A program made the translations under genes and the position numbers. The notes under the pieces are model-generated. The model did no database searches and was not told the origin of the DNA. It saw only the letters and a list, made by a program, of their open reading frames with translations. This document shows positions 13,572 through 62,065 of a DNA stretch of 64,000 nucleotides, piece after piece. This stretch comes from an uncultured Planctomycetales bacterium (lineage in GTDB: Bacteria > Omnitrophota > Gorgyraeia > Gygaellales > Profunditerraquicolaceae), in contig CAYRUB010000002.1 of the NCBI GenBank assembly GCA_964427405.1, forward strand, positions 68,741 through 132,740, written 5' to 3'. Positions within the stretch are counted from its first letter, which is position 1. Each line of letters begins with the position of its first letter.

Positions 13572-14217
13572 CGTAAATATCAGGAAGTTTGAAAATAGGG
13601 ATAGAGGCAAGCTCAGGTCAATCAGCCATGATACTGCTTTTATGGGGCAGCCGGCTTCTCTATTTTTTGAAGGCAGAGAAATTATTTGCGATGCCCTTAA
13701 CTCATATTTTACTGATTATGAACCGGAGTCTTGTTTTGTCGCGGAGGTTAATTCGACAGTCGTTGGTTACTTGATTGGCGCAAAAAACAAAATTGCCGCA
13801 GAAAAAGTTTTTCAAGATAAGATAATGTTACGTTTATTTTGGAGGGCGCTAAAAAGCGGCGTTTTTATTAAAAAAAAGAATATTGTCTTTATTTTTAGTT
13901 GTTTGACGGCGTTTCTTAAGGGCGGCTTTTCCACTCCTGATTTTACAAAAGAATACCCAGCCACTTTTCATATCAACATAAAAAACGAATTCCGTGGCCA
14001 AAATATCGGCACGGCCTTAATAAACGCTTACCTGAGTTACCTGAAAGAAAAACTGGTCTCTGGCGTGCATTTAGCGACAATGTCCCGGGCCGGAGCAGAT
14101 TTTTTCTTTAAACAATCATTCCGGTTGCTCTATGAAGGAAAAAGGTCTTATTTTAAACATATTCTGCGCAAAGATGTTCCGCTTTATATTTACGGTAAGA
14201 AATTAGTAAGTTTATAG
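13555..14217 (+). CDS. GNAT-family N-acetyltransferase
   Basis: 220 aa. FHINIKNEFRGQNIGTALINAYL fits the acetyl-CoA-binding motif A (R/QxxGxG/A). GTG start overlaps the upstream gene. Confidence 0.65.
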   Translation: MSGELNVNIRKFENRDRGKLRSISHDTAFMGQPASLFFEGREIICDALNSYFTDYEPESCFVAEVNSTVVGYLIGAKNKIAAEKVFQDKIMLRLFWRALKSGVFIKKKNIVFIFSCLTAFLKGGFSTPDFTKEYPATFHINIKNEFRGQNIGTALINAYLSYLKEKLVSGVHLATMSRAGADFFFKQSFRLLYEGKRSYFKHILRKDVPLYIYGKKLVSL

Positions 14218-45650: not shown

Positions 45651-45656
45651 GTTTTT

Positions 45657-45730
45657 GCGCCTGTAGCTCAACTGGATAGAGCGCTAGCCTTCGGAGCTAG
45701 GCGTTGCAGGTTCGACTCCTGCCAGGCGCA
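45657..45730 (+). tRNA. tRNA-Arg (TCG)
   Basis: Hand fold: GCGCCTG/CAGGCGC acceptor, D-arm GCTCAACTGGATAGAGC, anticodon stem CTAGC/GCTAG with loop CTTCGGA, T-arm GCAGG-TTCGACT-CCTGC. No CCA. Confidence 0.85.
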
Positions 45731-45742
45731 TTAAATCCACAT

Positions 45743-47974: not shown

Positions 47975-48047
47975 GGGCCATTAGCTCAGCTGGTAGAGCA
48001 GGACACTCTTAATGTCAAGGTCGTAGGTTCGACTCCTACATGGCTCA
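47975..48047 (+). tRNA. tRNA-Lys (CTT)
   Basis: Hand fold: GGGCCAT/ATGGCTC acceptor, GCTCAGCTGGTAGAGC D-arm, anticodon stem GGACA/TGTCA with loop CTCTTAA, T-arm GTAGG-TTCGACT-CCTAC. No CCA. Confidence 0.85.
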
Positions 48048-48117: not shown

Positions 48118-50079
48118 ATGAACAAAACAATGAAACTAAAACAATCTAAAAATATGGGATTTAAGGAATTGAAGGATAAGTACCAGTTACTCAGAGATCT
48201 GATGGATTTTATCCCGGATGTCATCTACTTTAAAGATAAGAAAGGCAGGTTTATTATGGTCAACCAGGCTCATGCTAGGGGCCTGGGGGTAAAACCTGAA
48301 GCGTTGGTAGGGAAAACAGATTTTGATCTTTTTTCAAAAAACCGGGCGAGGAAAATGGTCCAGGATGATGCACGCGTTATGGATACCTGCACACCAATCA
48401 TTGATAAGGTGGAAAGAGCGACTCGGCCGGACGGCGTAGATAACTATGTTTCTACAACTAAGATTCCGCGTTATGACGATAAAGGAAAGGTTATCGGTTT
48501 AATCGGCATTACCAGGGATATTACCCGGCGTATGCAGTTTGAGCGGCTGAGAAAGGATAAATTAAGTATTGAAAAGAAACTGGAGGCGTTGGAGGAGCTC
48601 AGTGTGATGAAGTCTGAGTTTATCTCTACTGTTTCTCATGAATTACGCACTCCTTTGGCAGTAATTAAGCAGTTGGTTACCGTAGTTTTTAATGAAGTTG
48701 TCGGTCAGATAAACCATAAGCAAAGGGAAGTACTTCAGAAAACACTGGATAACTCTGAACGCTTAAAGAAGATTATTGATGATTTACTGGATGTCTCGCG
48801 GATCGAAAGAAATACCCTCAAACTTCACTATTCCCTGGTAGATATAGTTGATCTCATGAAAGACTCGGAAGGCTTTTTCATGAAATTGGCCGAAGAAAAG
48901 AATATCTGCCTGAAATACGCTTATCCTAATGAACCGGTCAATGTCTTTATTGATGCTGACAGGATAAGGCAGGTTATTTCTAATCTTATCAGTAATGCTA
49001 TCAAATTTACCATGGATGGCGGTAAGATCAAGGTAGAGGTAAAAATTTTGGAAGCAAAAGTCAGGATAGGGGTTGTAGACACCGGTGTCGGTATTTCTAA
49101 AGCAGACCTGCCTTCAATATTTAACAAATTCACTCAAGTTTCTAAACTTCCGGGAGCAGAAACTAAAGGCGTAGGATTGGGGCTTTCTATATCTAAGAAG
49201 CTGGTTGAAAGGCACAAAGGGGAGATTTGGGCTGAATCTAAAGCTGGAGTGGGAAGCAGGTTTTATTTTACCTTACGCCGTTTTTATACTCTTGATATGC
49301 TGGGTAAGAGCGTAAGGAATAAAGTGGGCAGGCTAATGAAAAGCGGAGTATCCATGCACTTTGTTAGCTTGTTGATCTTAAATTGCAGCGAATTCAGAAA
49401 AAGGATGAAAATCGGTTCGCAATCATTATTTAAAGATTTACATACTATTCTTGATTTGGTGCTTAAGAACGCTAAATATGGAAATGCAGATAAACAAGTA
49501 ATGTCTGTAATAAACCCCAAGGCAGGCAAATTCAGCATAATTCTTCCCGGGGCCTCCAACAGGCAGGCAGCCAATATTTCCAGCTTGCTTAAATATAAGA
49601 TTAAGCAGTACTTTGCCAACAATAAAGTCGAAGATGTTTTTATAACTATAGGTTCGCTGTCTTATTCGCAGAAGGTTTTCTCGCAAAATGACGGGCTTTC
49701 TCCTTCGCGGTTTTCTATTAAAGAAATATATATAGGTTCAGAGATGCGGCGTTTTAAAAGGATGTCTTTTAAAACAAATATTAAGCTTTTCTTGCCCGCG
49801 GAAAAAATTGAGTTATCTGAATCCGTAGATGTATCTGAGGGGGGAATTTGCTTGGTAATTAAGCATCTGTTAAAGACAGATTCACAATTAAAGATAAGCT
49901 TTGCTTTCCCGGAAAACAAAGAATTCATTATTGTGGCAAAAGTGCGCCTGGCCTGGATAAGAAAGATTGAACTTCCCCTTGGAGAGATGTCCGATAAATA
50001 TAAAGTGGGGCTGGAGTTTGTAAATTTAGAGAAGAGGTACAAAAGAGTTATTTGCAGAAGATTGATGAATAAATCTTAA
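48118..50079 (+). CDS. PAS sensor histidine kinase with C-terminal degenerate GGDEF-like and PilZ domains
   Basis: PAS (DVIYFKDKKGRFIMVNQAHARGLG), HisKA H-box SHELRTPL, and HATPase N/G boxes (NLISNAIKFT, DTGVGI, GVGLGLS). An ~150-aa region follows with GGDEF-like spacing but AGKFS in place of GGDEF. The PilZ part has RRFKR and DVSEGG. Confidence 0.8.
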   Translation: MNKTMKLKQSKNMGFKELKDKYQLLRDLMDFIPDVIYFKDKKGRFIMVNQAHARGLGVKPEALVGKTDFDLFSKNRARKMVQDDARVMDTCTPIIDKVERATRPDGVDNYVSTTKIPRYDDKGKVIGLIGITRDITRRMQFERLRKDKLSIEKKLEALEELSVMKSEFISTVSHELRTPLAVIKQLVTVVFNEVVGQINHKQREVLQKTLDNSERLKKIIDDLLDVSRIERNTLKLHYSLVDIVDLMKDSEGFFMKLAEEKNICLKYAYPNEPVNVFIDADRIRQVISNLISNAIKFTMDGGKIKVEVKILEAKVRIGVVDTGVGISKADLPSIFNKFTQVSKLPGAETKGVGLGLSISKKLVERHKGEIWAESKAGVGSRFYFTLRRFYTLDMLGKSVRNKVGRLMKSGVSMHFVSLLILNCSEFRKRMKIGSQSLFKDLHTILDLVLKNAKYGNADKQVMSVINPKAGKFSIILPGASNRQAANISSLLKYKIKQYFANNKVEDVFITIGSLSYSQKVFSQNDGLSPSRFSIKEIYIGSEMRRFKRMSFKTNIKLFLPAEKIELSESVDVSEGGICLVIKHLLKTDSQLKISFAFPENKEFIIVAKVRLAWIRKIELPLGEMSDKYKVGLEFVNLEKRYKRVICRRLMNKS

Positions 50080-50092
50080 GGAGCTAAAAACT

Positions 50093-50464
50093 ATGCCAAA
50101 GAAACGAATATTACTTATAGAAGATGAAGTTGATATGGTGTATGCGCTGACTCTTCATCTGGAGGCAATGAATTGTGAAGTTTTAAGTGCTGGCGACGGG
50201 CAAACAGGCTTGGATATGGCGCGTAAAGAAAAGCCGGATTTGATTATACTGGATTTGATGCTTCCCAAAATGGACGGTTATAAGGTTTGCAGAATATTAA
50301 AATTTGATGAAAGATACAAGAAGATACCCATTATTATGTTTACTGCCCGCGCCCAGGATCAGGATAAAAAACTGGGCCAGGAGGTAGGTGCGGATGCTTA
50401 TATCACCAAACCTTTTGATTCCAGGGTGCTTTTGGATAAGATAAGCGCGTTGCTTAAGAAATAA
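50093..50464 (+). CDS. Single-domain response regulator (receiver only)
   Basis: 123 aa. ILLIEDE, DLIILDLMLP (phospho-Asp) and YITKPF motifs. Confidence 0.9.
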   Translation: MPKKRILLIEDEVDMVYALTLHLEAMNCEVLSAGDGQTGLDMARKEKPDLIILDLMLPKMDGYKVCRILKFDERYKKIPIIMFTARAQDQDKKLGQEVGADAYITKPFDSRVLLDKISALLKK

Positions 50465-50883
50465 TGAGTGTTTCTTTCCAGCTTATAGAACATACCGCTG
50501 ATATCGGCATCAGGGTCAAATCACTTTCCTTAGGCGGTTTATTCAAGAAAGCAGGCCTTGCTATAGCCGATCTTTCATTAGAGAGACAAAAAACCCGATA
50601 CCCTGAAAAACACAAGATTGCAATCAAGCAAAAAGCAACTAATCTGGAGGAGCTTTTTGTCAATTGGATAAATGAGCTATTGTCAGTATCCGCAGTAGAA
50701 TCCCTCGCTTTTGAAAATATTCAAATAAATCAGATCAATAAGAATTTTGTGGATGCAGTTGCCGTAGGAAGCGATATAAGAAATTATAAGATCAACACTG
50801 AAATCAAGGCCGCTACCTACCATCAGCTAAAGGTTAAAAAAACCGGGCTCATCTGGCAGGCAGAAGTAATTTTTGATGTGTGA
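50464..50883 (+). CDS. Archease (RtcB cofactor)
   Basis: 139 aa. FQLIEHTADIGIRV N-terminal signature and a KAATYH-type C-terminal motif. Confidence 0.85.
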   Translation: MSVSFQLIEHTADIGIRVKSLSLGGLFKKAGLAIADLSLERQKTRYPEKHKIAIKQKATNLEELFVNWINELLSVSAVESLAFENIQINQINKNFVDAVAVGSDIRNYKINTEIKAATYHQLKVKKTGLIWQAEVIFDV

Positions 50884-50886
50884 AAA

Positions 50887-52341
50887 ATGACCGGCAATAT
50901 CCCATTAGAGAAAATTGATGATTATCGCTGGCGCATCCCCCGAAGCTATAAGCCGGGAATGCGCGTGCCCGGTTTAATTTATGCTGATGAGAAGTTATTG
51001 AAAGACATCTATCAGGACAAGGCCCTGGAACAGGTGGCTAATGTGGCTTTTTTGCCGGGGATAGTAGATAATTCTCTAGCTATGCCTGATATCCATTGGG
51101 GCTATGGTTTTCCTATCGGAGGAGTGGCGGCTACAGATATTGAAGAAGGCGGGGTTATTTCACCCGGAGGAGTAGGGTTTGATATAAATTGCGGGGTAAG
51201 ATTATTAAAAACTAATTTAGAATATGATGATCTTAAGAATAAGATTAAGGATTTAATTTATCGTTTATTTTCTGATGTTCCTTCCGGAGTCGGCTCGCAA
51301 GGTGATATAAGAGTCAGCTCTAAAGAAGAAAGAGAAATCTTATTAAAAGGCGCACGTTGGGCAGTGGAAAAGGGATTTGGAACAGAGGATGATCTTGATT
51401 GCACTGAAGAAAATGGAGCTATGCAGGGAGCAGACCCTCAGACAGTATCGGAGCGGGCCCTGCAGCGGGGCAAAACACAGTCTGGCACATTGGGGTCCGG
51501 AAATCATTTCTTAGAAGTTCAGGTAATTGACCAGCTTTATGACCGGGAGGCCTGCGATACTATGGGGCTTAATTTGGGCCAGGTGATGGTTGCGATCCAC
51601 TCCGGCTCCAGGGGCTTAGGTTATCAGATTTGTGAAGATTATTCGCGCGGCATGGTCGCAAGCCTGGGAAAATATAATATAAATGTGCCTGACCGGCAAC
51701 TTGCTTGTGCTCCGGTTACTTCTAATGAAGGTAAGGCGTATCTATCTGCGATGAAATGCGCGGCAAATTATGCCTGGTGCAACCGGCAGTGTTTGATGCA
51801 TTTAACCCGTCAGGTATTTGAGAAGATTTTTGGTTCTTCTTGGCAGAAACTGGGAATGTTTTTAATTTATGATGTTGCTCACAACATTGCCAAAATTGAA
51901 AAACATAAGGTTGGCGGCAAGGAAAAGAATCTCTGTGTACATCGCAAAGGCGCAACCCGGGCCTTTGGCCCTAACCATCCGGTCCTGCCTGAGAAATACA
52001 AGAAAATCGGCCAGCCGGTAATTATTCCTGGGGATATGGGCAGGAATTCGTATCTTTTGGTCGGGACGGAAAAAGCAATGCAGGAGACCTTTGGCAGCGC
52101 CTGCCATGGCGCCGGCCGTCTGAAATCACGTACCGCCGCCTTAAGATCCATTAACCCAGATATATTATTGAAAGAATTAGAATCTAAAGGTATAATAGTA
52201 AAAGCCTCAGGACGTAATACGCTGGTAGAGGAGGCGCCTTCGGTTTATAAAGATGTAAATGACGTGGTGGATGTAGTACATAATGCGGGGATTTCCAAAC
52301 GCGTCTGCAGAATGCGCCCGCTAGGAGTAGTTAAAGGTTAA
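50887..52341 (+). CDS. rtcB: RNA 3'-phosphate ligase RtcB
   Basis: 484 aa. PDIHWGYGFPIGGV, GVGFDINCGVR, GSGNHFLE, HSGSRGLG and the GSACHGAGR motifs. Confidence 0.95.
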   Translation: MTGNIPLEKIDDYRWRIPRSYKPGMRVPGLIYADEKLLKDIYQDKALEQVANVAFLPGIVDNSLAMPDIHWGYGFPIGGVAATDIEEGGVISPGGVGFDINCGVRLLKTNLEYDDLKNKIKDLIYRLFSDVPSGVGSQGDIRVSSKEEREILLKGARWAVEKGFGTEDDLDCTEENGAMQGADPQTVSERALQRGKTQSGTLGSGNHFLEVQVIDQLYDREACDTMGLNLGQVMVAIHSGSRGLGYQICEDYSRGMVASLGKYNINVPDRQLACAPVTSNEGKAYLSAMKCAANYAWCNRQCLMHLTRQVFEKIFGSSWQKLGMFLIYDVAHNIAKIEKHKVGGKEKNLCVHRKGATRAFGPNHPVLPEKYKKIGQPVIIPGDMGRNSYLLVGTEKAMQETFGSACHGAGRLKSRTAALRSINPDILLKELESKGIIVKASGRNTLVEEAPSVYKDVNDVVDVVHNAGISKRVCRMRPLGVVKG

Positions 52342-52344
52342 AAA

Positions 52345-53616
52345 ATGCTAGATATAAAATTCATTCGGGAAAATCAAGATTTAGTAAAGCAGGCAATGAA
52401 AGACCGGGCTTTAACGGTAGATATTGATAGCCTTGTTAAGATTGACGATAATCGTCGTAAAGCTTTAAGCGAGTTTGAGGAATTAGCAGCTAAGCGCAAT
52501 AAAGCCAATGATGAAATCAGCGTGTTGTTAAAAGAAAAAAAAGACGCGAAGAGCAAAATATTCTCAATGAAGGATATCTCAAAGCGTATTGGAGAGCTTG
52601 AGCCGCAAATAAAAAAGCAGGAAGTAGAATTAAATAAGCTGCTTCTAAGCATTCCCAATGTTCCGCATGCCTCTTTGCCGGTAGGAGATGCTTCCTGTAA
52701 TAAGGTTGTGCGTAGCTGGGGGGAGCCGAGGAAGTTTGATTTTAAGCCGCTTAGCCATATTGAGCTTTGCCAGGACTTAGATATCGTAGACTTTAACCGG
52801 GCTACTAAAATTACCGGTTCGAATTTTATCCTTTTCAAGGGTTGGGGGGCAAAACTTGAGCGCGCTTTAATTAATTTTATGCTTGATTTGCATACCAGCA
52901 AACATGGTTATACTGAAATATTCCCGCCGTTTCTGGTTAATCGCGCCTCTATGCTTGGCACTGGCCAGCTTCCCAAGTTGGAAGAAGATATGTATAAGCT
53001 TAAAGATGATGATCTTTTTCTTATTCCTACCGCAGAAGTACCGGTTACCAATATTTTCCGTGATGAAATTATAGATGAAGATAAACTGCCTATTTATTAT
53101 ACTGCCTATACAGCTTGTTTTAGGAGAGAGGCAGGCTCGTATGGTAAAGATACCAAAGGTTTGATCCGCGTGCATGAATTTGATAAGGTAGAGATGGTTA
53201 AATTTGTTAAGCCTGAAGACTCTTATGATGAGCTGGAAAAACTGGTAGTTAATGCAGAAGAGGTGTTGCAGCTTTTAGAGCTGCCTTATCGGCTGCTATT
53301 GCTTTCTACGCAAGATATAAGTTTTTCTGCCAGCAAATGCTATGACCTTGAGGCTTATACTGCAGGTGTAGATAAATGGCTTGAAGTATCCAGCTGTAGC
53401 AACTTTGAAAGTTTCCAGGCCCGTCGGGCAAATATAAGGATGCGCCGCAAAGAAAGTAAAAAGATAGATTTTGTGCATACTTTGAACGGTTCAGGTATTG
53501 CTTTAGCGCGCACGGTGGTAGCGATTTTAGAGAATTACCAACAGGAGGACGGCTCGGTTTTAATCCCTAAAGCCCTGCAGCCGTATTTAAATGGCCAAGA
53601 AAGAATTACCCGATAA
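52345..53616 (+). CDS. serS: Seryl-tRNA synthetase
   Basis: [14 protein letters not shown], an N-terminal coiled-coil arm, and class II motifs ([42 protein letters not shown]). Confidence 0.95.
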
Positions 53617-54298
53617 GAAATTACTCAAAGATAGCCCTTTATCAAGGGAACCTGCCGGTATCTCCGGAGATTTCTCCAGCAAGATATCTGGTCTATCCAG
53701 CAAGGCCTTTGGAATAATCAAATTTATTTTAGGTTTAGTTCTTTTGCCGTTTGTTTTCTCGACTGCAGTATCTTTTTTAAATGAGTTTGGCCTGGTGAAC
53801 AGGAATTTACAGACAATATTCTGGAGCGGGGCAATTAGTTTTTTGGTGATCTATCTATTTATTTGGGAACCGGCGTTAATTTACAATAAAGGCCACAAGC
53901 TGCTGGAGATTATGTTTAGTTTCTTTAAGCCCATGGTTAATGTAGCGCCTTTTCTTCTGCCTATATACGTGATCTTAGCATTTATTATTTACGGGTTGTT
54001 GTCGCTGGCAATCAAATCCAGCTGGTTGATTGAATATACGCTTTTTTTGGTTGGTTTTGCCGCTGTTTTACACCTGGTGTTTTCAGCTAAAACCATCCGT
54101 ACTAAGAAGGGTGATTTTTTAAAGGGAAATTACATATTTGGATTTTCCTTTATTTTTATCCTGAACCTTGCTTTGCTTGCCATGGGCTTTAGCCTGATTT
54201 TTAAGGAGTTCTCATTTGTTAATTTCTGCAATATTTCTTTTGGTATAGCCAGTAAAATATTTTACGCTGTTTTTAAACAGCTTTTTATATTTGGTTGA
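53591..54298 (+). CDS. Polytopic membrane protein, unknown function
   Basis: 235 aa with about six TM helices. Overlaps the serS 3' end by 26 nt. Confidence 0.45.
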
Positions 54299-54322
54299 GA
54301 ATAGGCCATAATCAGGAGAGCT

Positions 54323-54411
54323 GGAGAGGTCGCATAGCTGGTTGATTGCACCGGTCTTGAAAACCGGAAGGGGACTTGTTCCCCTCGCGAGTTCGAATCT
54401 CGCCCTCTCCG
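54323..54411 (+). tRNA. tRNA-Ser (TGA)
   Basis: Hand fold: GGAGAGG/CCTCTCC acceptor, anticodon stem CCGGT/ACCGG with loop CTTGAAA, long variable arm GGGGACTTGTTCCCC, T-arm GCGAG-TTCGAAT-CTCGC. No CCA. Confidence 0.9.
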
Positions 54412-54424
54412 TTTATTTTTTAAT

Positions 54425-55471
54425 ATGATAGGTGCTATGGCAGAGCGGATTAGAAATAGAAGGGCAAAGTTTCCGGAAGGCAAACAAAGATTGTTTATCT
54501 CAAGCGTTAATAAAAAATTAGGCGTGAGCCGGGATAAGCTATCTGAAATTTTCAATATAAACAGGCGTACATTAAGCGATTGGTGCAGAGAGAAATCCTC
54601 TATGAATTATAAGGTTCTTTTAGATTTGCAAACAAATTATAATATATCAATTCCAAAAGAAATCAAGATTTTACCGCAATTTTGGTACGTTAATAGAGCG
54701 GCTAAACTTGGAGCATTGATGCGGAATAAGCTTTATGGAAACTTTGGTACCCCCGAAGGTAGGCGAAAGGGTGGGCTTACTACGATAAGAAAGTTTATGC
54801 ATAGGCCTAAGTTAGCTAAGAAATTGGGGCTAAGAGTTATTAAAGATATAAAACGTCCTAAAAGTGGCTTGCAATTGTCTGAATTTGTAGGTATAGTATT
54901 GGGCGATGGAGGCTTGACAGATTATCAGCTAAGAATTACTTTTAATAGAGACACAGACGCTGAGTATGCGGATTTTGTGAAAGAGTTGATAAAAAAACTT
55001 TTTAAACTAGCGCCAAGAATAATTCACAAAAAGTCGGATAAGGGAAGTGATATTGCGGTTTATAGTAAGAACTTAGTGGAGTTTTTAGAGAGTCGCGGCT
55101 TAAAAAGAGGGAATAAAGTTAGAAATAAAGTAGATATTCCCCGCTGGATAAAGAAAAACAAAAGATTCCAATTGTCTTGTTTGCGCGGCCTGATGGATAC
55201 TGATGGTTCTTGTTATGCCTATTCGCATAACGTCAATAAGAAGAGATATCGTAATGTTGCGCTTTGTTTTACCAATGCTTCGGAAGCTTTATTAAAAAGT
55301 GTTTACCATATCTTTGATAGTGGTGGATATTATCCTCGTATGACCGGCAGGCGGGTTTATGTATACGGAGAAAACGAGATTAATAAATATTTTCAAAAAG
55401 TAGGCTCGCATAATTATAAGTATTTGGAAAATTATAGAAGATTCAGATCTTTGAAAGGTAAAGAAACCTAA
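54425..55471 (+). CDS. Free-standing double-motif LAGLIDADG endonuclease-like protein with N-terminal HTH-like region
   Basis: Two LAGLIDADG-type motifs (LSEFVGIVLGDGGLT and LSCLRGLMDTDGSCY) ~100 aa apart. A basic N-terminal ~140 aa contains VSRDKLSEIFNINRRTLSDWCR. No clear SD, so the start is uncertain (54425 or 54437). Confidence 0.75.
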   Translation: MIGAMAERIRNRRAKFPEGKQRLFISSVNKKLGVSRDKLSEIFNINRRTLSDWCREKSSMNYKVLLDLQTNYNISIPKEIKILPQFWYVNRAAKLGALMRNKLYGNFGTPEGRRKGGLTTIRKFMHRPKLAKKLGLRVIKDIKRPKSGLQLSEFVGIVLGDGGLTDYQLRITFNRDTDAEYADFVKELIKKLFKLAPRIIHKKSDKGSDIAVYSKNLVEFLESRGLKRGNKVRNKVDIPRWIKKNKRFQLSCLRGLMDTDGSCYAYSHNVNKKRYRNVALCFTNASEALLKSVYHIFDSGGYYPRMTGRRVYVYGENEINKYFQKVGSHNYKYLENYRRFRSLKGKET

Positions 55472-55476
55472 TTTTT

Positions 55477-55567
55477 GGAGGCGTCGCATAGCTGGTTGAG
55501 TGCACCGGTTTCGAAAACCGGAATGGTCGTAAGGCCATCGGAGGTTCGAACCCTCCCGCCTCCGCCA
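55477..55567 (+). tRNA. tRNA-Ser (CGA), CCA encoded
   Basis: Hand fold: GGAGGCG/CGCCTCC acceptor, anticodon stem CCGGT/ACCGG with loop TTCGAAA, variable arm ATGGTCGTAAGGCCAT, T-arm GGAGG-TTCGAAC-CCTCC, then G-CCA. Confidence 0.9.
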
Positions 55568-55677: not shown

Positions 55678-56823
55678 TTGGCTTGCTTGAACATTAAGCA
55701 AAAATCCTGTTGTTTGCTCGCACTTTTCTTCCTATCCTTCATTTTTTCTCCCCTATTCGCCCAGGACTTTTCACCCGCGCAAGTAAGAGACATTTCAGAC
55801 CGCGCCTACGAACCGGCAGTGATTGAGCTCTTGGATCAGGCTAAAGAGTCTATTACTATTTCCATGTATAACATCAGCTTGGGCGTAAAGGAAAGGAATC
55901 CGGTAACCTTTCTTCTCCAGGATTTAATGGAAGCCCGCCAACGCGATGTCGCGGTTACATTTTACCTGAACACCAACTTCAGGGAAATTGATAAAGAGCC
56001 CCATCAGCTTATCAGGAGCCCATTCTTTAAGAAATTAGCGGATGCCGGATGCATTTTTCATCTCTTGCCTTCGCGCCTGCGCCTTCACGATAAACTTATC
56101 ATAGTGGATAGCCGTTTCGTGGTTGAGGGAAGCACAAATTGGTCCATCTCTGCCTTAAAGAGCAATCGCGAATCCGCCACACTGATAGATTCCCCTGGAC
56201 TTGCCGGAATAAAGTTATCGCGGCTTAAAGCTCTGCCATTAACCACCAAGCCAAAAGAAAAAGAGCCCCGCAGGGCATTATATCTGGAAACCCTGCCCGA
56301 CAGCATAGTTATCCCCGTGATTCTTCTCCTTGACGAGCGTTATTTTCCCAAAATGTTTACCAGCCAGGATTCCCGCAGTATGGATCTTTATCTACTGCTT
56401 CTATCCCATAGCCAGGTTGAGGGAAAATCAGGTTTCTTCGTTGAGTTGGAGAGTATGGCCCTTAGCCTGAATATGCCTGTTTCCTGGTTTGATTTTGGGC
56501 TTAGGCGCCAGGTAATCAGGAGCCTTAAAAAATTAGAGGATAATTACGGCTTGCTGCGCGTTAAATTTTTCCATAGTAAGGATGCCTGGGTTGAGCTTGT
56601 AAATTTTCCTCAAGAGCCCTTTAGCGCAAATTCTAAACTTATCACTAACCAAAAAATATCTTATCGCCTGAAATTCCTGCTTATGATAAAATCCCTGCTT
56701 GAATCGCAGGGAGAAGATTTGCATTCCATATCCAAACAGGAGATTGCCAGGCGTTTCCATATCCATCCTTGGACTGTAGGCGAAGCCTTCAAAGAGCTAA
56801 AACAATACGAAAAAGGCAGTTAA
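55678..56823 (+). CDS. Secreted PLD-superfamily (Nuc-like, single HKD) protein fused to two winged-helix-like C-terminal domains
   Basis: TTG start with GAGGAAG upstream. Signal peptide ...IFSPLFAQD. HKD motif LHDKLIIVDSRFVVEGSTNWS. The C-terminal ~170 aa has two wHTH-like segments (SRSMDLYLLLLS...IRSLKKLEDNYGLL and ISKQEIARRFHIHPWTVGEAFKELK). Confidence 0.65.
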   Translation: MACLNIKQKSCCLLALFFLSFIFSPLFAQDFSPAQVRDISDRAYEPAVIELLDQAKESITISMYNISLGVKERNPVTFLLQDLMEARQRDVAVTFYLNTNFREIDKEPHQLIRSPFFKKLADAGCIFHLLPSRLRLHDKLIIVDSRFVVEGSTNWSISALKSNRESATLIDSPGLAGIKLSRLKALPLTTKPKEKEPRRALYLETLPDSIVIPVILLLDERYFPKMFTSQDSRSMDLYLLLLSHSQVEGKSGFFVELESMALSLNMPVSWFDFGLRRQVIRSLKKLEDNYGLLRVKFFHSKDAWVELVNFPQEPFSANSKLITNQKISYRLKFLLMIKSLLESQGEDLHSISKQEIARRFHIHPWTVGEAFKELKQYEKGS

Positions 56824-56886: not shown

Positions 56887-58419
56887 TTATTCTACTAAAT
56901 TTTGGAGAGGTGGCAGAGTGGTCGAATGCGCACGCCTGGAGAGCGTGTGACCCGCAAGGGTTCCAGGGTTCGAATCCCTGCCTCTCCGCCAACAAGGATA
57001 GGGCGCTGCTTCAAACAGGGGACGGAAGGTGCCTTCCGTCGAAAAATTGAGGCGGCGCTCTTTTAAAATAAAGTTCGAACCAATCTTTTCCAGAAATTCT
57101 TTCTGGGATTCTAAATTTCCCTCTTCAATCGCGCAACGGGCTCTATTTAAAGAAGTTACAAGTTCTTTGGCCGGTTCGAACCAATTATTTGCCCCAGCAG
57201 CAAAATCCTGCATAGATTCCTGCAATTCCTTCTTATCGTTAATAAAAGCTTCCTTCTTAGCCTGATATTCTTCAAGCGTCAGAGTGCCTTCAAGGTAAAC
57301 ATCAATAAGCTTATTAATCTTAGTTTCAATCGTCTTAACCTTAACTTCAAGATTTTGCTGCTGGGGCAACGATGATTGGACACCGCTATTTCTGTCTTTT
57401 TCTAACTCTTCTAAAATCTTCTTTGTCCAATCATCGCACAAAGAAACTTTTTGAATGAAGGATTTGATCTGCGCGGCAAGCGCTTCTTCACGCACATACT
57501 TCTGATTGCAATTTGTAAGGCGCTTGGTGCAGCGGTAATAAGTATGTCCTTTTTGGATTTCAGCGGTTATTGACCTTCCGCATTCACCGCAACGCATTAG
57601 CCCCCTGAAAACAAATTTAAATTCTTCTTTCTTGGGCTTGCCGCGCCTAAGCATTACTTCCTGACACTTATCAAAAAGTTTCTTTGTGATAATTGGTTCG
57701 TGTGTACCTTCATACATCTCGCCTTTATAGCGAAATACGCCGTAGTAGAGAGGATTTTGCAGCATAAACTGGTAGTCGCTAACAGATAAAGGCTTATCTT
57801 TTCTGCCGGTCATACCAAGGGTGTTTATCTTACGGCGTATTTCGCTAAGAGGATAAGAGCCCGTTGCGTAGATTTCAAAAGCTTTCCTGATGAAAGGAGC
57901 TTTGCCCTCATCCAAGATAATCGCGCGGGTCTTGCGGTCGTTAAGGTATCCAACAGGCGCCCATTGAGGCCAGATACCTTTGCTTAACTTGAGGCGGATG
58001 CCACGCCTGATATTCTCTGAAAGGGCATCTATATAATACTTACTCTGCCCGAAAGCGATAGAGAGCATAAACTTACCTTGGGCGTTATTATCAAGGCGGT
58101 AGGTAGGAAACTTCAAGTCTTTAATTAAGCCACGATCCAAAAGGTAGATGATGCGCCCGCCGTCTATGGAATTGCGCGCCAATCTATCCGGGTGCCAAGC
58201 CATTATTCCTTCGGCTTCACCTTTTTCGATAGCTTTAATCATATCGTTAAAAAGCAACCGCCCGGGCTCTTTGGCAGTTTTCGCTTCAACTAATTCCTTA
58301 TAAACAAAAAGATTCTCCCGCTTGGCAAAGGCGCGCAATTCCACAAGCTGGGCCTCAATGGATAATATTTGTCTGTCATCATCATCGGTGGACTTTCGGG
58401 CATAGATAAAGTAACGCAT
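56887..58419 (-). CDS. Large serine recombinase
   Basis: 510-codon ORF. MRYFIYARKSTDDDDRQILSIEAQ (catalytic Ser region), a resolvase domain, a recombinase domain, a zinc ribbon CGECGRS...YYRC...C, and a coiled-coil segment. SD AAGGAG lies 8 nt upstream. The last ~60 codons are encoded by IR-L and the antisense of tRNA-Ser, so the true C-terminus is uncertain. Confidence 0.85.
   Translation of the reverse strand: MRYFIYARKSTDDDDRQILSIEAQLVELRAFAKRENLFVYKELVEAKTAKEPGRLLFNDMIKAIEKGEAEGIMAWHPDRLARNSIDGGRIIYLLDRGLIKDLKFPTYRLDNNAQGKFMLSIAFGQSKYYIDALSENIRRGIRLKLSKGIWPQWAPVGYLNDRKTRAIILDEGKAPFIRKAFEIYATGSYPLSEIRRKINTLGMTGRKDKPLSVSDYQFMLQNPLYYGVFRYKGEMYEGTHEPIITKKLFDKCQEVMLRRGKPKKEEFKFVFRGLMRCGECGRSITAEIQKGHTYYRCTKRLTNCNQKYVREEALAAQIKSFIQKVSLCDDWTKKILEELEKDRNSGVQSSLPQQQNLEVKVKTIETKINKLIDVYLEGTLTLEEYQAKKEAFINDKKELQESMQDFAAGANNWFEPAKELVTSLNRARCAIEEGNLESQKEFLEKIGSNFILKERRLNFSTEGTFRPLFEAAPYPCWRRGRDSNPGTLAGHTLSRRAHSTTLPPLQNLVE
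56904..56991 (+). tRNA. tRNA-Ser (GGA), CCA encoded
   Basis: Hand fold: GGAGAGG/CCTCTCC acceptor, anticodon stem CACGC/GCGTG with loop CTGGAGA, variable arm ACCCGCAAGGGT, T-arm CAGGG-TTCGAAT-CCCTG, then G-CCA. The last 6 nt are part of IR-L. Confidence 0.9.
56986..57076. repeat. IR-L: left copy of a 91-bp perfect inverted repeat
   Basis: Exact reverse complement of 58527-58617 (compared base by base). Contains the palindrome GACGGAAGG-TG-CCTTCCGTC at 57021-57040. Confidence 0.95.
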
Positions 58420-58471
58420 AGGGCAAAGCTCCTTTCTCCCAAATAGGGAAGAGGGAAATTTAGAATCCGTG

Positions 58472-58508
58472 CTTTTTATTTTGGGCCTCCATTACCCAAA
58501 ATAAAAAG
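58472..58508. other. Perfect 14-bp AT-rich hairpin in the recombinase leader
   Basis: CTTTTTATTTTGGG (58472-85) / CCCAAAATAAAAAG (58495-508) with loop cctccatta. Lies between the recombinase start and IR-R. Confidence 0.7.
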
Positions 58509-58526
58509 TACAAAAAGATTGGTGAA

Positions 58527-58617
58527 GAACTTTATTTTAAAAGAGCGCCGCCTCAATTTTTCGACGGAAGGCACCTTCCGTCCCCTGTTTGAAGCAGCGC
58601 CCTATCCTTGTTGGCGG
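58527..58617. repeat. IR-R: right copy of the 91-bp perfect inverted repeat
   Basis: Exact reverse complement of 56986-57076. Palindrome GACGGAAGG-CA-CCTTCCGTC at 58563-58582. Confidence 0.95.
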
Positions 58618-58654
58618 TGGTTCTTTGATACTGTTCGAACGATCTTTGTTTAAT

Positions 58655-58830
58655 CCACCGCGCCTGTCGGCGCTCCCACATCTCCCGTGCACCGTTCCCC
58701 CTCGCTGGGGCTCGGGGTCACTTGGCGGCCGCCTGGGCCGGCGGCCTTCTTGCTAATGCAATGCGTGTGCGGCGCAGCTGGATGCTGCAGCCGGGTGGGG
58801 GCGGCTGCAGCATCCAGCGTCCTCACCGAG
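58655..58830. other. GC-rich hairpin-dense non-coding island (candidate structured RNA or recombination/insulator element)
   Basis: 122 of 170 bases are G+C over 58661-58830 (hand count), between AT-rich flanks. Hairpins: GCGCC-tgtc-GGCGC (58660-73); GGCCGCC-tgggcc-GGCGGCC (58727-46); a perfect 16-17-bp stem GCTGGATGCTGCAGCC(G) / (C)GGCTGCAGCATCCAGC (58777-58818). The only ORF here (minus, 67 aa, Ala/Pro/Gly-rich) looks non-coding. Confidence 0.5.
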
Positions 58831-58952
58831 CAATTATTATAAGTAAAAACCAAAGTTTATAAGGGTTCGGCCGCTATGCCGCTATTACTTCCTAAAACCT
58901 ACACAAACGCGGCAATGCCGCGCCTCTTGCGTTCAACACTTTAAAGCAGACT

Positions 58953-58983
58953 GGCAAAATTTTGGTGCGGGCAAAATTTTGCC
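58953..58983. repeat. Tandem GGCAAAATTTTG(CC) motifs, operator-like or an 11-bp-stem hairpin
   Basis: GGCAAAATTTTG at 58953-64 and GGCAAAATTTTGCC at 58970-83. The unit is itself palindromic, and the two copies can pair as GGCAAAATTTT/AAAATTTTGCC. Confidence 0.7.
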
Positions 58984-59025
58984 TGACCTATCCTTTTAGG
59001 CCAAAGCATAGAAGAGAAAGAACAT

Positions 59026-59127
59026 CTACTTGAGCATTTCAATTATAAAGAATATAACAAATAAAATTAAAGATATGATGATCCCAGCTGCAATTTTCTC
59101 TTCATAGAATTTAAAATACCTCTCCAT
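59026..59127 (-). CDS. 33-aa hydrophobic peptide (not in the ORF track)
   Basis: Minus-strand ATG at 59127 is preceded by GGAGAG at 6-nt spacing. Product MERYFKFYEEKIAAGIIISLILFVIFFIIEMLK (one TM helix), with TAG at 59028-26. Confidence 0.4.
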   Translation of the reverse strand: MERYFKFYEEKIAAGIIISLILFVIFFIIEMLK

Positions 59128-59156
59128 ATTATTCTCTCCAAAGAATGGAAATTGGT

Positions 59157-59185
59157 TTGAAAAGCGCGTTTTTTAGTGGTAGAAT
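59157..59185 (+). promoter_or_regulatory. Extended -10 sigma70-type promoter upstream of the HTH-mod-res genes
   Basis: TTGAAA (59157-62), 17-nt spacer ending in TGG, TAGAAT (59180-85), ~70 nt upstream of the HTH ATG. Confidence 0.5.
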
Positions 59186-59255
59186 ACGCCTATTGGTATC
59201 CTTAAATTAGCTATCATTATGTTAATACTATTATAATATATAGTCAAGAGAAAAC

Positions 59256-59453
59256 ATGCTAGCAAAAAGAGTAAAAGAGTTTCGAAAAAAGAAGGGTTGG
59301 ACTCAACAGAAATTAGCTGAGAAAACAGGCCTCTCTTTTAATACGATTACTAAGATTGAGCAAGGGATTGGAGATTCTCCTACTTTGAAAACTTTGATTA
59401 AGTTAGCGGATGCTTTAGGTATCGGTTTAGACGAATTGGCCGGTCGTTCTTAA
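59256..59453 (+). CDS. XRE-family HTH protein (controller/C-protein-like)
   Basis: 65 aa. RKKKGWTQQKLAEKTGLSFNTITKIEQG is a canonical XRE HTH. Located directly upstream of mod. Confidence 0.8.
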   Translation: MLAKRVKEFRKKKGWTQQKLAEKTGLSFNTITKIEQGIGDSPTLKTLIKLADALGIGLDELAGRS

Positions 59454-59525
59454 AGTATAAAAAATAATAGAAACGGTCATATTGCTCGTTACTGGAAACA
59501 ATAAGGAAGATTGAAAGGTAGAAGT

Positions 59526-62063
59526 ATGCCGAGAGGAAAAGCAAAACAGAGCAAAGACATAAAAGTTGAGACATATACGCATAAAGGCAAGAAGCGCAGG
59601 AATAATCCCCACGTTGGCCTTGTCTCAAGCGCAACGGATAAATTAAACGGTCGGACGAAATATAAACACGATCCGTATATAGATCCTTATCTTAGCTGGG
59701 CTGGCAAGGCCGAGGGCATGAGTCTTGAAGTTCAGAATGTTAGTCTCCATATCCATGAGCGCATTGACTCCAAGCGCATCGTCAAAGCTTTTTTAAATAA
59801 AAAAGAACAGAAACAATTTCAGCTCGATTTGTTTGAACAGCCGGACAATGACCCTCCGTTAAACAAGGCCATTGACTTCTATAAACACGAGCAAGATTGG
59901 GCAAACCGACTAATCGCCGGTGATTCACTTTTGGTTATGAATTCTCTCCTCAAGAAAGAAGGAATGGCTGGCAAGGTCCAAATGGTCTACATCGACCCGC
60001 CGTATGGAATTAAATACAATTCCAATTTTCAGCCGTTTGTTGATGACACATCAATGAAGCAAGGCGATAAGGATGGTGATTTAGTTGTTGAGCCTGAAAT
60101 GATTCAGGCATTTAGAGACACATGGGAATTGGGTGTGCATTCATACTTAAACTATCTTCGAGATCGGATTCTATTGGCAAAAGATCTCCTCAGTAAATCT
60201 GGGAGTATTTTTGTTCAAATATCGGAGGAAAATGTTCACAGTGTAAGAGCTATCCTCGATGAATTATTTGGAGTCGAAAACTTTGTCAGCCAAATTAATA
60301 TTAAACGCGCATCGATGATGTTCGCAAAAAAGCTATTAAATAATGCGGTTTATTACGTGATATGGTACGCAAAAAATAAAGAAGAAGTTAGATATCACCA
60401 ATTATTTACCGACAAAGATGAGCAATGGTTTGCGGATTCTGCAGGCGCACATCTTAGGGCGGAAAATCCTGTGAATGGAGAAACCATCTTAGTTCCTGCA
60501 GATATGCGAAAGAATATGAAGGAGTTTAAGATAAAATACCCCGATTGGAAGTTATACAGATTGCTAGGGGTTAATGCTCAAGGTACAGAAAAAAGAGAGC
60601 CATTTGAATTTGATGGAAAAAGTTTTATCCCGCCAAGTGGTACTCAATGGAAATATTCATATGATGGCTTAAATATTCTAAAACAGAAAAACCGTCTTGA
60701 AATTGAGAAGAATAGTTTAGCATGCAAAGTTTATCTCTCAGATTATCCTGTAGAGTCTATAAATAGTTTGTGGGATGGAATTGGTGCGGCTGGGGATAAA
60801 ATTTATGTGGTTCAAACATCTGACGAAATAGTTAAAAGATGTCTTTTGATGACTACCGATCCCGGTGACCTTGTTTTTGATCCTACCTGCGGTTCTGGAA
60901 CAACAGCCTATGTTGCCGAGCAATGGGGACGACGCTGGATCACCTGTGATACTTCACGTGTTGCCGTTACTCTTGCCAAACAAAGATTAATGACTTCGAA
61001 ATATGATTATTACCAGTTAGCACATCCTACCGAGGGCATAAAGAGCGGATTTAAGTATAAAACCGTTCCTCATGTCACGCTTGGTTCAATCGCAAATAAT
61101 GAGCTACCCTCGCAAGAAACTCTCTATGATTCACCGCCTGTTGAGAAAGGCAAAGTACGAGTTACGGGACCATTTACTGTTGAAGCAGTGCCATCGCTTC
61201 GTGTGAAGCCATTTGACGGTAACGAGCCAAAGGTTGAAGCCACAAGCGAACAATTAGCACGCATGGGTGAAACCGGCAAGCAGGTTGAATGGCGTGATGA
61301 ATTAAAAACTACCGGGATTCGTGCGACTGGCGGCAAAGTCATACAATTCTCTCGCCTTGAGCCGATGGTTGCTACGAGATTCTTGCATGCCGAGGGCGAG
61401 ATCCTTGACGCTGGCGGTGAAAATAAACGAGCATATATCAGCTTTGGTTCAGATTTTGGCCCACTCGAGCAGAGGCAAGTTGAAGAAGCTATAAAAGAAG
61501 CGCGTTCTCTAAAAAATAAACCGCACTTTGTAATATTTGCCGCATTTCATTTTGACCCTGAAGCGGCCAAAGACATTGATCAGATAAACTGGCCGGGGGT
61601 AAAGATTCTTAAGGCACAGATGAGTGTTGATCTCTTGACTAAAGATCTACGCAAGAACCGGTCTTCTAGCCACAGCTATTGGCTTATCGGTCAGCCGGAT
61701 GTGGAAGTCACCAAGCATAAAGATGGAAACTACAAGGTAAGAGTAAATGGTTTTGATTATTACAATCCGCTTACTGGCGAAATTGAATCTAAAGGCACTA
61801 AGCACATTGCCATGTGGTTTTTAGATACCGACTATGACGAGAGGAGCCTTTATCCCGATCAGGTCTTTTTCCCTGAGAGCGATTCAAAGCGCGACTGGTC
61901 AAAATTGGCCAAGGCATTGAATGGCGAGGTTAATGAAGACCTTCTGGATAAATTCTCAGGCGTTGAATCTCTGCCATTCGCTGGTGGTGAAAATAAAAAG
62001 ATCGCGGTTAAGATTATCGATAACCGCGGGATTGAAGCCTTTGTAATTAAAAAACTGGATTAA
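59526..62063 (+). CDS. mod: Type III restriction-modification DNA methyltransferase (Mod), beta-class N6A/N4C
   Basis: Motif IV VYIDPPYG precedes motif I FDPTCGSGTT (beta order). Conserved N-terminal HDPYIDPYLSWAGK segment and a long C-terminal extension. Start taken at ATG 59526; the tracked TTG at 59511 has no spacing to an SD. Confidence 0.85.
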   Translation: MPRGKAKQSKDIKVETYTHKGKKRRNNPHVGLVSSATDKLNGRTKYKHDPYIDPYLSWAGKAEGMSLEVQNVSLHIHERIDSKRIVKAFLNKKEQKQFQLDLFEQPDNDPPLNKAIDFYKHEQDWANRLIAGDSLLVMNSLLKKEGMAGKVQMVYIDPPYGIKYNSNFQPFVDDTSMKQGDKDGDLVVEPEMIQAFRDTWELGVHSYLNYLRDRILLAKDLLSKSGSIFVQISEENVHSVRAILDELFGVENFVSQINIKRASMMFAKKLLNNAVYYVIWYAKNKEEVRYHQLFTDKDEQWFADSAGAHLRAENPVNGETILVPADMRKNMKEFKIKYPDWKLYRLLGVNAQGTEKREPFEFDGKSFIPPSGTQWKYSYDGLNILKQKNRLEIEKNSLACKVYLSDYPVESINSLWDGIGAAGDKIYVVQTSDEIVKRCLLMTTDPGDLVFDPTCGSGTTAYVAEQWGRRWITCDTSRVAVTLAKQRLMTSKYDYYQLAHPTEGIKSGFKYKTVPHVTLGSIANNELPSQETLYDSPPVEKGKVRVTGPFTVEAVPSLRVKPFDGNEPKVEATSEQLARMGETGKQVEWRDELKTTGIRATGGKVIQFSRLEPMVATRFLHAEGEILDAGGENKRAYISFGSDFGPLEQRQVEEAIKEARSLKNKPHFVIFAAFHFDPEAAKDIDQINWPGVKILKAQMSVDLLTKDLRKNRSSSHSYWLIGQPDVEVTKHKDGNYKVRVNGFDYYNPLTGEIESKGTKHIAMWFLDTDYDERSLYPDQVFFPESDSKRDWSKLAKALNGEVNEDLLDKFSGVESLPFAGGENKKIAVKIIDNRGIEAFVIKKLD

Positions 62064-62065
62064 CT

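Follow-up and report, generated by a model that had tools for sequence, protein, structure and literature searches.

A layered gene array in Omnitrophota around an archease-rtcB-serS-tRNA-Ser(UGA) string, and a counterpart with a predicted serine T-box in Atribacterota

INTRODUCTION

RtcB is an RNA ligase that seals 2′,3′-cyclic-phosphate and 5′-OH RNA ends, for example those produced by anticodon nucleases. The E. coli enzyme has no archease, and the regulator RtcR is reported to be activated through its CARF domain by damaged tRNA fragments, a form of regulation that points to damaged tRNAs in general. RtcB2-PrfH and Pnkp-Hen1 are precedents for a bacterial RNA ligase that is tied genetically to a component of the translation apparatus. 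The gene for seryl-tRNA synthetase (SerRS), serS, is classically controlled by a T-box, a riboswitch that in this case senses tRNA-Ser. Archease is an activator of RtcB, and the two are encoded together in a “tRNA splicing operon” in archaea and diverse bacteria (Desai et al. 2014, PMC3973293). A tRNA m5C methyltransferase appears in that paper as an occasional partner in the operon, and a term search of its text returned no instance of the word synthetase (PMC3973293). The neighborhood of RtcB and PrfH is discussed in PMC6514570. Here we describe an array on a 64,000-nucleotide (nt) stretch of an Omnitrophota contig, referred to below as the window, in which the archease and RtcB genes run directly into serS and are followed, after a membrane protein gene, by tRNA-Ser(UGA).

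The explanation that we favor, and consider reasonably likely, is that this is a layered composite array around an old and selected archease-rtcB-serS-tRNA-Ser(UGA) core, to which other genes have been added. Archease-RtcB operons as such were already known; the new part is their extension by serS and tRNA-Ser(UGA), together with the predicted control of the extended operon by a serine T-box in Atribacterota. Among open-access papers and bioRxiv preprints, we found none that connects serS or T-boxes with RtcB or archease.

RESULTS

The archease-rtcB-serS string is conserved across Omnitrophota

An earlier note on this DNA, made from the sequence alone, had described a single co-directional array at 48118-55567. 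Using an open reading frame (ORF) listing, ARAGORN, Rfam, and Pfam/NCBIfam, we recovered every element of that layout, all on the + strand. The archease gene (50464-50883; PF01951, E = 3.9e-30, full profile) is followed after 3 nt by rtcB (50887-52341; PF01139, 588 bits), which encodes a 3′-phosphate/5′-OH RNA ligase of the long archaeal type, and after another 3 nt by serS (52345-53616), which encodes a SerRS of the bacterial type with Seryl_tRNA_N and tRNA-synt_2b domains (TIGR00414, 528 bits against a cutoff of 302). The next gene overlaps serS by 26 nt and encodes a 235-residue polytopic membrane protein (53591-54298) that has no family match and is specific to Omnitrophota; tRNA-Ser(UGA) (54322-54412; ARAGORN and Rfam) begins beyond a gap of 23 nt according to ARAGORN, or 24 nt according to Rfam. 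Ahead of archease lie a sensor histidine kinase gene and, 13 nt after it, a response regulator gene whose stop codon shares 1 nt with the archease ATG. The spacings in the earlier description thus hold, as does the presence of three adjoining serine isoacceptors, UGA, CGA, and GGA, the last of which (56904-56991) lies beyond the region first noted. Short spacing is weak evidence for a functional module here, because the window is mostly + strand (83% of genes) and tightly packed, with 47% of co-directional gaps outside the array at 15 nt or less. The gene order is nevertheless strongly non-random, because it is kept in dozens of genomes.

RtcB relatives, taken from one genome per species, place the window in Candidatus Omnitrophota, and the 80 loci compared were scanned by tblastn with the window proteins and by ARAGORN; locus labels such as L001 refer to the compared loci, and taxon labels are those of the deposited metagenome-assembled genomes. 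At least 33 species-level genomes of Omnitrophota type show the order archease, RtcB, SerRS, membrane protein, tRNA-Ser(UGA). In a neighbor-joining (NJ) tree of RtcB, the main clade from Omnitrophota is monophyletic, and serS lies downstream in every member with enough flanking sequence, while identity across the clade drops from 82% to 63% for RtcB and from 77% to 54% for full-length SerRS. Conservation of the rtcB-serS adjacency, which the earlier note had set as a test of its proposal, therefore holds throughout this clade and, as described below, extends to Atribacterota. Where the membrane protein is present at Omnitrophota loci, it always sits between serS and tRNA-Ser(UGA); in L002, L005, and L008 it is followed by all four tRNA-Ser isoacceptors and a tRNA-Arg. 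On the other side of the block, a tRNA-Lys gene about 25 nt 5′ of archease marks the ancestral left border in many or most Omnitrophota relatives (L003-L009, L028, and L068, with tRNA-Lys(UUU) instead in L017, L022, L025, and L036). Its equivalent in the window is tRNA-Lys(CUU) at 47975-48047 (+ strand; ARAGORN and Rfam). About 40 loci from Dehalococcoidia, WOR-3, Bacillota, and other phyla are without serS, some 30 of them having archease-rtcB and the rest RtcB alone, and serS is also absent at RtcB loci from Firmicutes, Armatimonadota, and one further lineage.

The ligase encoded in the window is predicted to be catalytically intact and of archaeal type. It aligns over its full length with Pyrococcus horikoshii RtcB (1uc2; 587 bits) and keeps the motifs DINCGVR, SGNHFLE, HSGSRGLG, AHNIAK, and CHGAGR, as well as the metal- and GMP-binding residues Cys98, Asn202/His203, His234, His329, and His404 (P. 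horikoshii numbering). The archease likewise aligns over its full length with P. horikoshii archease (4n2p) and retains EHTADIG, KAxTYH, and the C-terminal FD, with its acidic, metal-binding tip residues conserved.

Several further features of these loci are recorded here. The 991-residue RtcB of L068 (8180-11155) is interrupted, just past its active-site motif GFDINC, by an intein that has an endonuclease domain of the LAGLIDADG type. In L001, L003, L012, L013, and L014, the interval between archease and rtcB holds a conserved secreted protein of about 470 residues with an N-terminal signal peptide (“...YNQNFGLVKDRR...”). Upstream of the array, a neighborhood of genes for a radical SAM protein, tRNA-Arg(UCG), DUF192-like, TPR, VanZ-like, and MORN proteins, and tRNA-Lys(CUU) is syntenic throughout the genus and partially so across the phylum; it includes positions 45656-45731 and 47975-48047 of the window. 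In the window and its relatives, tRNA genes often lie within a few nucleotides of protein genes, which implies mixed tRNA-mRNA transcripts.

A predicted serine T-box precedes the ligase genes in Atribacterota

Atribacterota contigs were located through homologues of the RtcB of L047. The archease, RtcB, and SerRS genes are adjacent in L047, L160, L161-L166 (L161/L162, L163/L164, and L165/L166), and L169, with different flanking genes each time, and tRNA-Ser(UGA) lies 3′ of serS in all of these loci with enough sequence. Directly 5′ of archease, Rfam identifies a T-box with scores of 78 to 111 bits in L160, L161, L163, L165/L166, and L169; the copy in L047 is cut by the contig end, and L038 has the T-box core motif. 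All five full copies have GAA-N-UCC-R on the 3′ side of the specifier loop, with variation in the adjacent bases; UCC codes for serine. The UGGC of the antiterminator bulge agrees with G73 as the discriminator base of the adjoining tRNA-Ser. Beyond the bulge come a terminator hairpin with a U-run, a ribosome-binding site, and then the ATG of archease. In L165, rtcB is separated from serS by 41 nt without a terminator, and no T-box lies between rtcB and serS at the Atribacterota loci, the sole one found there being 5′ of archease. We predict from these leaders that archease, rtcB, and serS form one operon in Atribacterota under a serine-sensing T-box that attenuates transcription; as the T-box with its serine specifier stands 5′ of archease, the ligase pair would be controlled by the same riboswitch as serS.

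The tRNA to which a T-box responds is intact and uncharged, and it pairs with the leader at the specifier as well as by its 3′ end; a tRNA-Ser that has been cut would not make both contacts. The inducing condition would therefore be low charging of seryl-tRNA, not cleavage as such.

This control appears to be confined to the Atribacterota loci. In the window, Rfam gave no T-box at E ≤ 1 between 47000 and 57000, and the core motif occurs nowhere in the 64,000 nt. An Rfam scan of the Omnitrophota-type loci L027, L032, L035, and L039 found none, and the core motif was absent from every fetched locus outside Atribacterota, those with archease-rtcB from Dehalococcoidia included. A riboswitch of another kind was seen in two of these loci: L032 has a c-di-GMP-I (GGC-type) riboswitch (RF03167, 59.8 bits) at 13988-14061, about 900 nt 3′ of the tRNA-Ser(UGA) that follows archease-rtcB-serS, and L035 has a weaker copy.

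A predicted promoter inside rtcB survives repeated loss of the ligase genes

The earlier note had seen no room for internal promoters in the array, had taken it for one transcript, and had called the ligase welded to SerRS. A comparison within the genus, using 16 metagenome contigs (L081-L096) that bear the same kinase at 82 to 99% identity, speaks against all three points. The best-scoring promoter-like site of the region is a predicted sigma-70-type promoter, TTGAAA-N17-TATAAT (52168-52196, + strand; 11 of 12 matches), which lies within rtcB codons for the peptide LLKELESKGII, 148 nt 5′ of the serS ATG. Seven of the 16 contigs (L085-L089, L091, and L094) are missing archease-rtcB, and each of them has serS, the membrane protein, and tRNA-Ser intact. 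The remnants are longest in L094, where some 40 nt from the start of archease and roughly 170 nt from the end of rtcB are left; the other six keep progressively less. All seven retain the promoter element intact, 57 to 148 nt 5′ of the serS ATG, within flanking rtcB sequence that has decayed. NJ trees of the kinase/regulator pair and of serS both scatter the deletion contigs over at least four positions, and the junctions of these contigs differ, which argues for at least four independent losses with the promoter kept each time.

Because the promoter is retained after rtcB is lost, serS and the membrane protein gene would form a transcription unit of their own, and the site within rtcB most likely drives it. 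The tRNA-Ser(UGA) gene, which in relatives begins 4 to 12 nt after the membrane protein stop codon, probably belongs to the same unit. A weak site at 54284-54312, considered as a separate promoter for this tRNA, is not conserved, given the 4 to 12 nt that relatives leave for it. There is a terminator-like hairpin with a T-run at 54266-54290. In the spacer between tRNA-Lys and the kinase gene, an alignment of 13 relatives revealed no convincing −35/−10 pair, and the kinase may be transcribed by read-through from the tRNA-Lys promoter. Judged by the deletions, archease-rtcB is dispensable in the genus of the window.

There is a lesson for annotation in this: where a streamlined genome packs its genes tightly in one direction, a functional promoter may be concealed inside a coding region, and natural deletion variants in metagenomes can expose promoters hidden in this way.

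A genus-specific kinase and a receiver-only regulator precede archease

The first gene of the array (48118-50079, + strand) encodes a soluble sensor histidine kinase with PAS, HisKA, and HATPase_c domains and a C-terminal PilZ domain (PF07238, E = 1.5e-8; residues 544-645, nt 49747-50052). Both PilZ motifs for cyclic di-GMP (c-di-GMP) are intact, RRFKR for RxxxR and DVSEGG for D/NxSxxG, in agreement with the suggestion in the earlier note that the kinase probably senses c-di-GMP. Between HATPase_c and PilZ there is a stretch of about 150 residues; its resemblance by eye (residues ∼390 to 540) to a degenerate GGDEF domain found no support in Pfam and was discarded. The second gene (50093-50464, + strand) encodes a 123-residue response regulator. 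The two have the hallmarks of a two-component system, with HisKA, HATPase_c, and SHELRTPL in the kinase and D54 (LDLMLP), T82, and K104 in the regulator. The Pfam Response_reg domain takes up residues 6-117 of the regulator, and Pfam detected no DNA-binding or other output domain; for that reason it cannot act as a transcription activator of the RtcR kind.

The kinase and regulator are present in all 16 genus contigs, with tRNA-Lys 5′ of the kinase gene in the 13 that reach that far, and this pair was not found at this position in the other Omnitrophota loci compared. Its restriction to L081-L096 points to an insertion between tRNA-Lys and archease at the level of the genus. The pair is also kept in all seven relatives without archease-rtcB. 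RtcR and RtcA (RNA 3′-phosphate cyclase) are indeed missing, as the earlier note had it: domain scans of every window ORF of about 250 residues or more, the size of RtcR and RtcA, detected neither RtcR-like domains (Sigma54_activat/AAA+ or CARF) nor an RtcA domain, and no sigma-54-type site (TGGCAC-N5-TTGC) was found near the array. These absences apply to the window alone. The further proposal that the kinase and regulator stand in for RtcR is not supported, as the pair is a genus-specific insertion, has no output domain in its regulator, and remains when rtcB is gone.

Signaling genes recur at other loci in the comparison. A different, membrane-bound kinase and a receiver-only regulator lie ahead of archease-rtcB in L024 and L034, with gaps of 11 to 12 nt; these regulators are 34 to 35% identical to that of the window, a level of generic similarity. 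Stand-alone PilZ genes are found between archease and rtcB in L005, L010, and L068, and L026 has a receiver gene in the interval from rtcB to serS. Post-translational or co-expression links between such genes and the cluster are suggested by this recurrence, which is no more than suggestive because the sequence similarity among the proteins is generic.

The tRNA-Ser spacers hold strain-specific cargo

Between tRNA-Ser(UGA) and tRNA-Ser(CGA) (55477-55567, + strand; ARAGORN and Rfam), the window has an ORF with helix-turn-helix and LAGLIDADG_3 domains (54425-55471, + strand; Pfam). The earlier note had counted it as part of the array; among the genus contigs, both this ORF and the PLD ORF described below occur only in the window and the near-identical L093, which identifies the two as strain-specific cargo. 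A homologue with 46% identity lies in L008 (17770-18771) between tRNA-Arg(ACG) and tRNA-Ser(GCU), and in other relatives the same tRNA spacers hold unrelated genes, for a flavodoxin-like protein, a membrane protein, or a permease. In this strain the tRNA-Ser(UGA) allele (GGAGAGGTCGCATAGCTGG...) is unlike the one found in all other members of the genus (GGTGGGGTGGCTGAG...), and its D-arm is the same as in the neighboring tRNA-Ser(CGA). It looks like the product of a gene conversion or replacement tied to insertion of the homing endonuclease. The allele of tRNA-Ser(CGA) is identical in L091.

The spacer between tRNA-Ser(CGA) and tRNA-Ser(GGA) measures 37 to 343 nt in other genus members, without the PLD ORF. 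In the window it holds a gene (55678-56823, + strand; PLDc_2, with matches to the NucT and DrmC models) for a PLD/NucT/DrmC-like nuclease-domain protein with HTH-like segments at its C terminus. This protein is secreted or membrane anchored, and it is solitary, with no other DISARM components. The third isoacceptor gene, tRNA-Ser(GGA) (56904-56991, + strand; ARAGORN and Rfam), is the integration site of a mobile element (region 56887-64000 of the window) with its junction at about 57007, 15 nt 3′ of the tRNA and within its terminator hairpin. The element has genes for a large serine recombinase (56887-58419, minus strand), the tail of whose ORF runs antisense through tRNA-Ser(GGA), and for an 850-residue type III-like DNA methyltransferase (59511-62063). 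No second copy of the attachment site was found within the window. L093 is without the element, which is therefore polymorphic in the population, and L090 has a recombinase with 52% identity at the same tRNA.

DISCUSSION

The tie of the ligase pair to the seryl-tRNA genes is real, old, and probably under selection. In the account that we favor, the core string would co-express RtcB and archease with the seryl-tRNA charging system in both Omnitrophota and Atribacterota. In Atribacterota, a build-up of uncharged tRNA-Ser would be read by the T-box through UCC and would induce the ligase. The Omnitrophota version lacks the T-box; its block begins after tRNA-Lys and would have gained the membrane protein and further tRNA-Ser genes. 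In the genome of the window, the PAS/PilZ kinase and the receiver-only regulator would then have been inserted ahead of archease, where they are probably co-transcribed with archease-rtcB, while the promoter embedded near the end of rtcB would drive serS and the membrane protein gene, with tRNA-Ser(UGA) probably included. On this account the ligase pair would be an accessory partner of the seryl-tRNA genes, unfused to them and open to loss, and RtcB would reseal 2′,3′-cyclic-phosphate/5′-OH breaks in RNAs of translation, with tRNA-Ser as one candidate, when charging of seryl-tRNA becomes limiting.

A number of observations weigh against this account. The SerRS proteins of the two phyla are 55 to 58% identical, as high as the deep values within Omnitrophota, so a single ancient transfer of the block becomes possible and the argument from independent recurrence weaker; the block may have passed between the phyla en bloc. 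Because pairwise identities do not settle the choice between transfer and recurrence, what we claim is long-term retention and not independent recurrence. The trees are NJ trees without support values, the specifier was assigned by aligning the leaders to the Rfam model and from the textbook geometry of T-boxes, and the proposed functions of promoter and T-box are read from sequence and from comparative retention. In Omnitrophota, tRNA-Lys is an equally constant neighbor on the other side of the block. The repeated loss of archease-rtcB means that the coupling is non-essential, and a generic ligase with no specificity for serine would fit equally well.

This last point leads to the alternative that survives best, although we think it rather doubtful: that the synteny is neutral, a generic RNA-repair cassette having settled in the serS leader, where it is kept for convenient expression with no tie to serine tRNA. 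Consistent with this, archease-rtcB occurs without serS in many other phyla, its repeated deletion has left serS, the membrane protein, and tRNA-Ser unaffected, serS has a predicted promoter of its own in the window, the genome is tightly packed and mostly co-directional, and an en bloc transfer would cut the independent origins to one. Yet the string has been kept while RtcB and SerRS diverged to 54 to 65% identity and all flanks were replaced, which would be unusual for a neutral gene order, and in every Atribacterota lineage sampled the ligase genes lie between serS and its T-box sensor.

The earlier note had read the array as a dedicated tRNA-Ser repair or quality-control module, in which RtcB and archease would reseal tRNA-Ser cut by an anticodon nuclease and SerRS would recharge it. 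We consider this unlikely. It would account for the retention of the ligase genes beside serS and tRNA-Ser(UGA) in two phyla and for a serine-specific T-box over archease-rtcB in Atribacterota, and RtcB does seal ends of the type that anticodon nucleases leave. However, archease-rtcB has been lost at least four times within one genus, and cleavage is not an obvious inducer of a T-box that senses intact, uncharged tRNA. There is, moreover, no nuclease, toxin, or defense-family gene among the scanned proteins of the array, and the other scanned window ORFs are housekeeping genes. PADLOC assigned no defense family to archease, RtcB, the membrane protein, or the LAGLIDADG protein, and the idea that the array proteins form a defense system was rejected for want of any such match among those scanned. 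A counter-measure against an anticodon nuclease is thus speculation.

A bolder form of the favored account, and one that we regard as improbable, would make archease-RtcB a dedicated ligase for seryl-tRNA maintenance or maturation, for example one that reseals broken class II tRNA-Ser, gated by the T-box in Atribacterota and by protein signaling modules (PilZ, receiver-only proteins, and kinases) that substitute for it in Omnitrophota. If this were true, a bacterial RtcB would for the first time have a defined physiological RNA client, and control of an RNA ligase by a riboswitch or a second messenger would be without precedent.

Least probable, and in our judgment very unlikely, is that the PilZ kinase and receiver-only regulator replace RtcR and run one operon from the kinase to the tRNAs on a c-di-GMP or PAS signal: the overlap of the regulator stop codon with the archease start, the different kinase and receiver-only regulator before archease-rtcB in L024 and L034, the PilZ genes between archease and rtcB in L005, L010, and L068, and the receiver gene in L026 speak for it, but the regulator lacks an output domain, the pair does not occupy this position in most Omnitrophota and stays behind in all seven relatives that have lost archease-rtcB, the regulators of L024 and L034 share a generic 34 to 35% identity with that of the window, and serS has its own predicted promoter.

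The in vivo role of bacterial RtcB is largely open, and the string described here places the ligase, in Atribacterota, between a predicted serine-tRNA riboswitch and serS. The favored account, a composite array around the archease-rtcB-serS-tRNA-Ser(UGA) core, predicts that expression of the ligase tracks the charging of seryl-tRNA and that a phenotype should be expected in tRNA-Ser or in the translation of serine codons.

The nearest described relative is the archease-RtcB operon. The likeness to it (PMC3973293) lies in adjacent, co-directional genes for archease and for a long-form RtcB with all its catalytic and metal-binding residues; the difference lies in serS and tRNA-Ser(UGA), which are added to the pair both here and in Atribacterota. 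No introns are evident in the tRNA genes of the window. With the RtcR-RtcBA system of E. coli and Salmonella, the Atribacterota version would share a tie between ligase expression and the state of tRNA; the sensor differs, being a protein activator in the one and, by our prediction, an RNA, the T-box, that reads the charging of one tRNA in the other. The window itself has no RtcR or RtcA, and no sigma-54 promoter near the array; its RtcB belongs to the long form that depends on archease, an activator that E. coli RtcB does without. Compared with the T-box-controlled serS of Firmicutes (RF00230), the Atribacterota leader has the same plan, with a UCC specifier, a UGGC bulge, and a terminator/antiterminator before the serS operon, but archease and rtcB stand between leader and serS, and the window has no T-box. 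Finally, whereas RtcB2-PrfH and Pnkp-Hen1 pair an RNA ligase with other partners, the partner here is an aminoacyl-tRNA synthetase together with its tRNA, and no release-factor homologue, kinase-phosphatase, or methyltransferase accompanies it.

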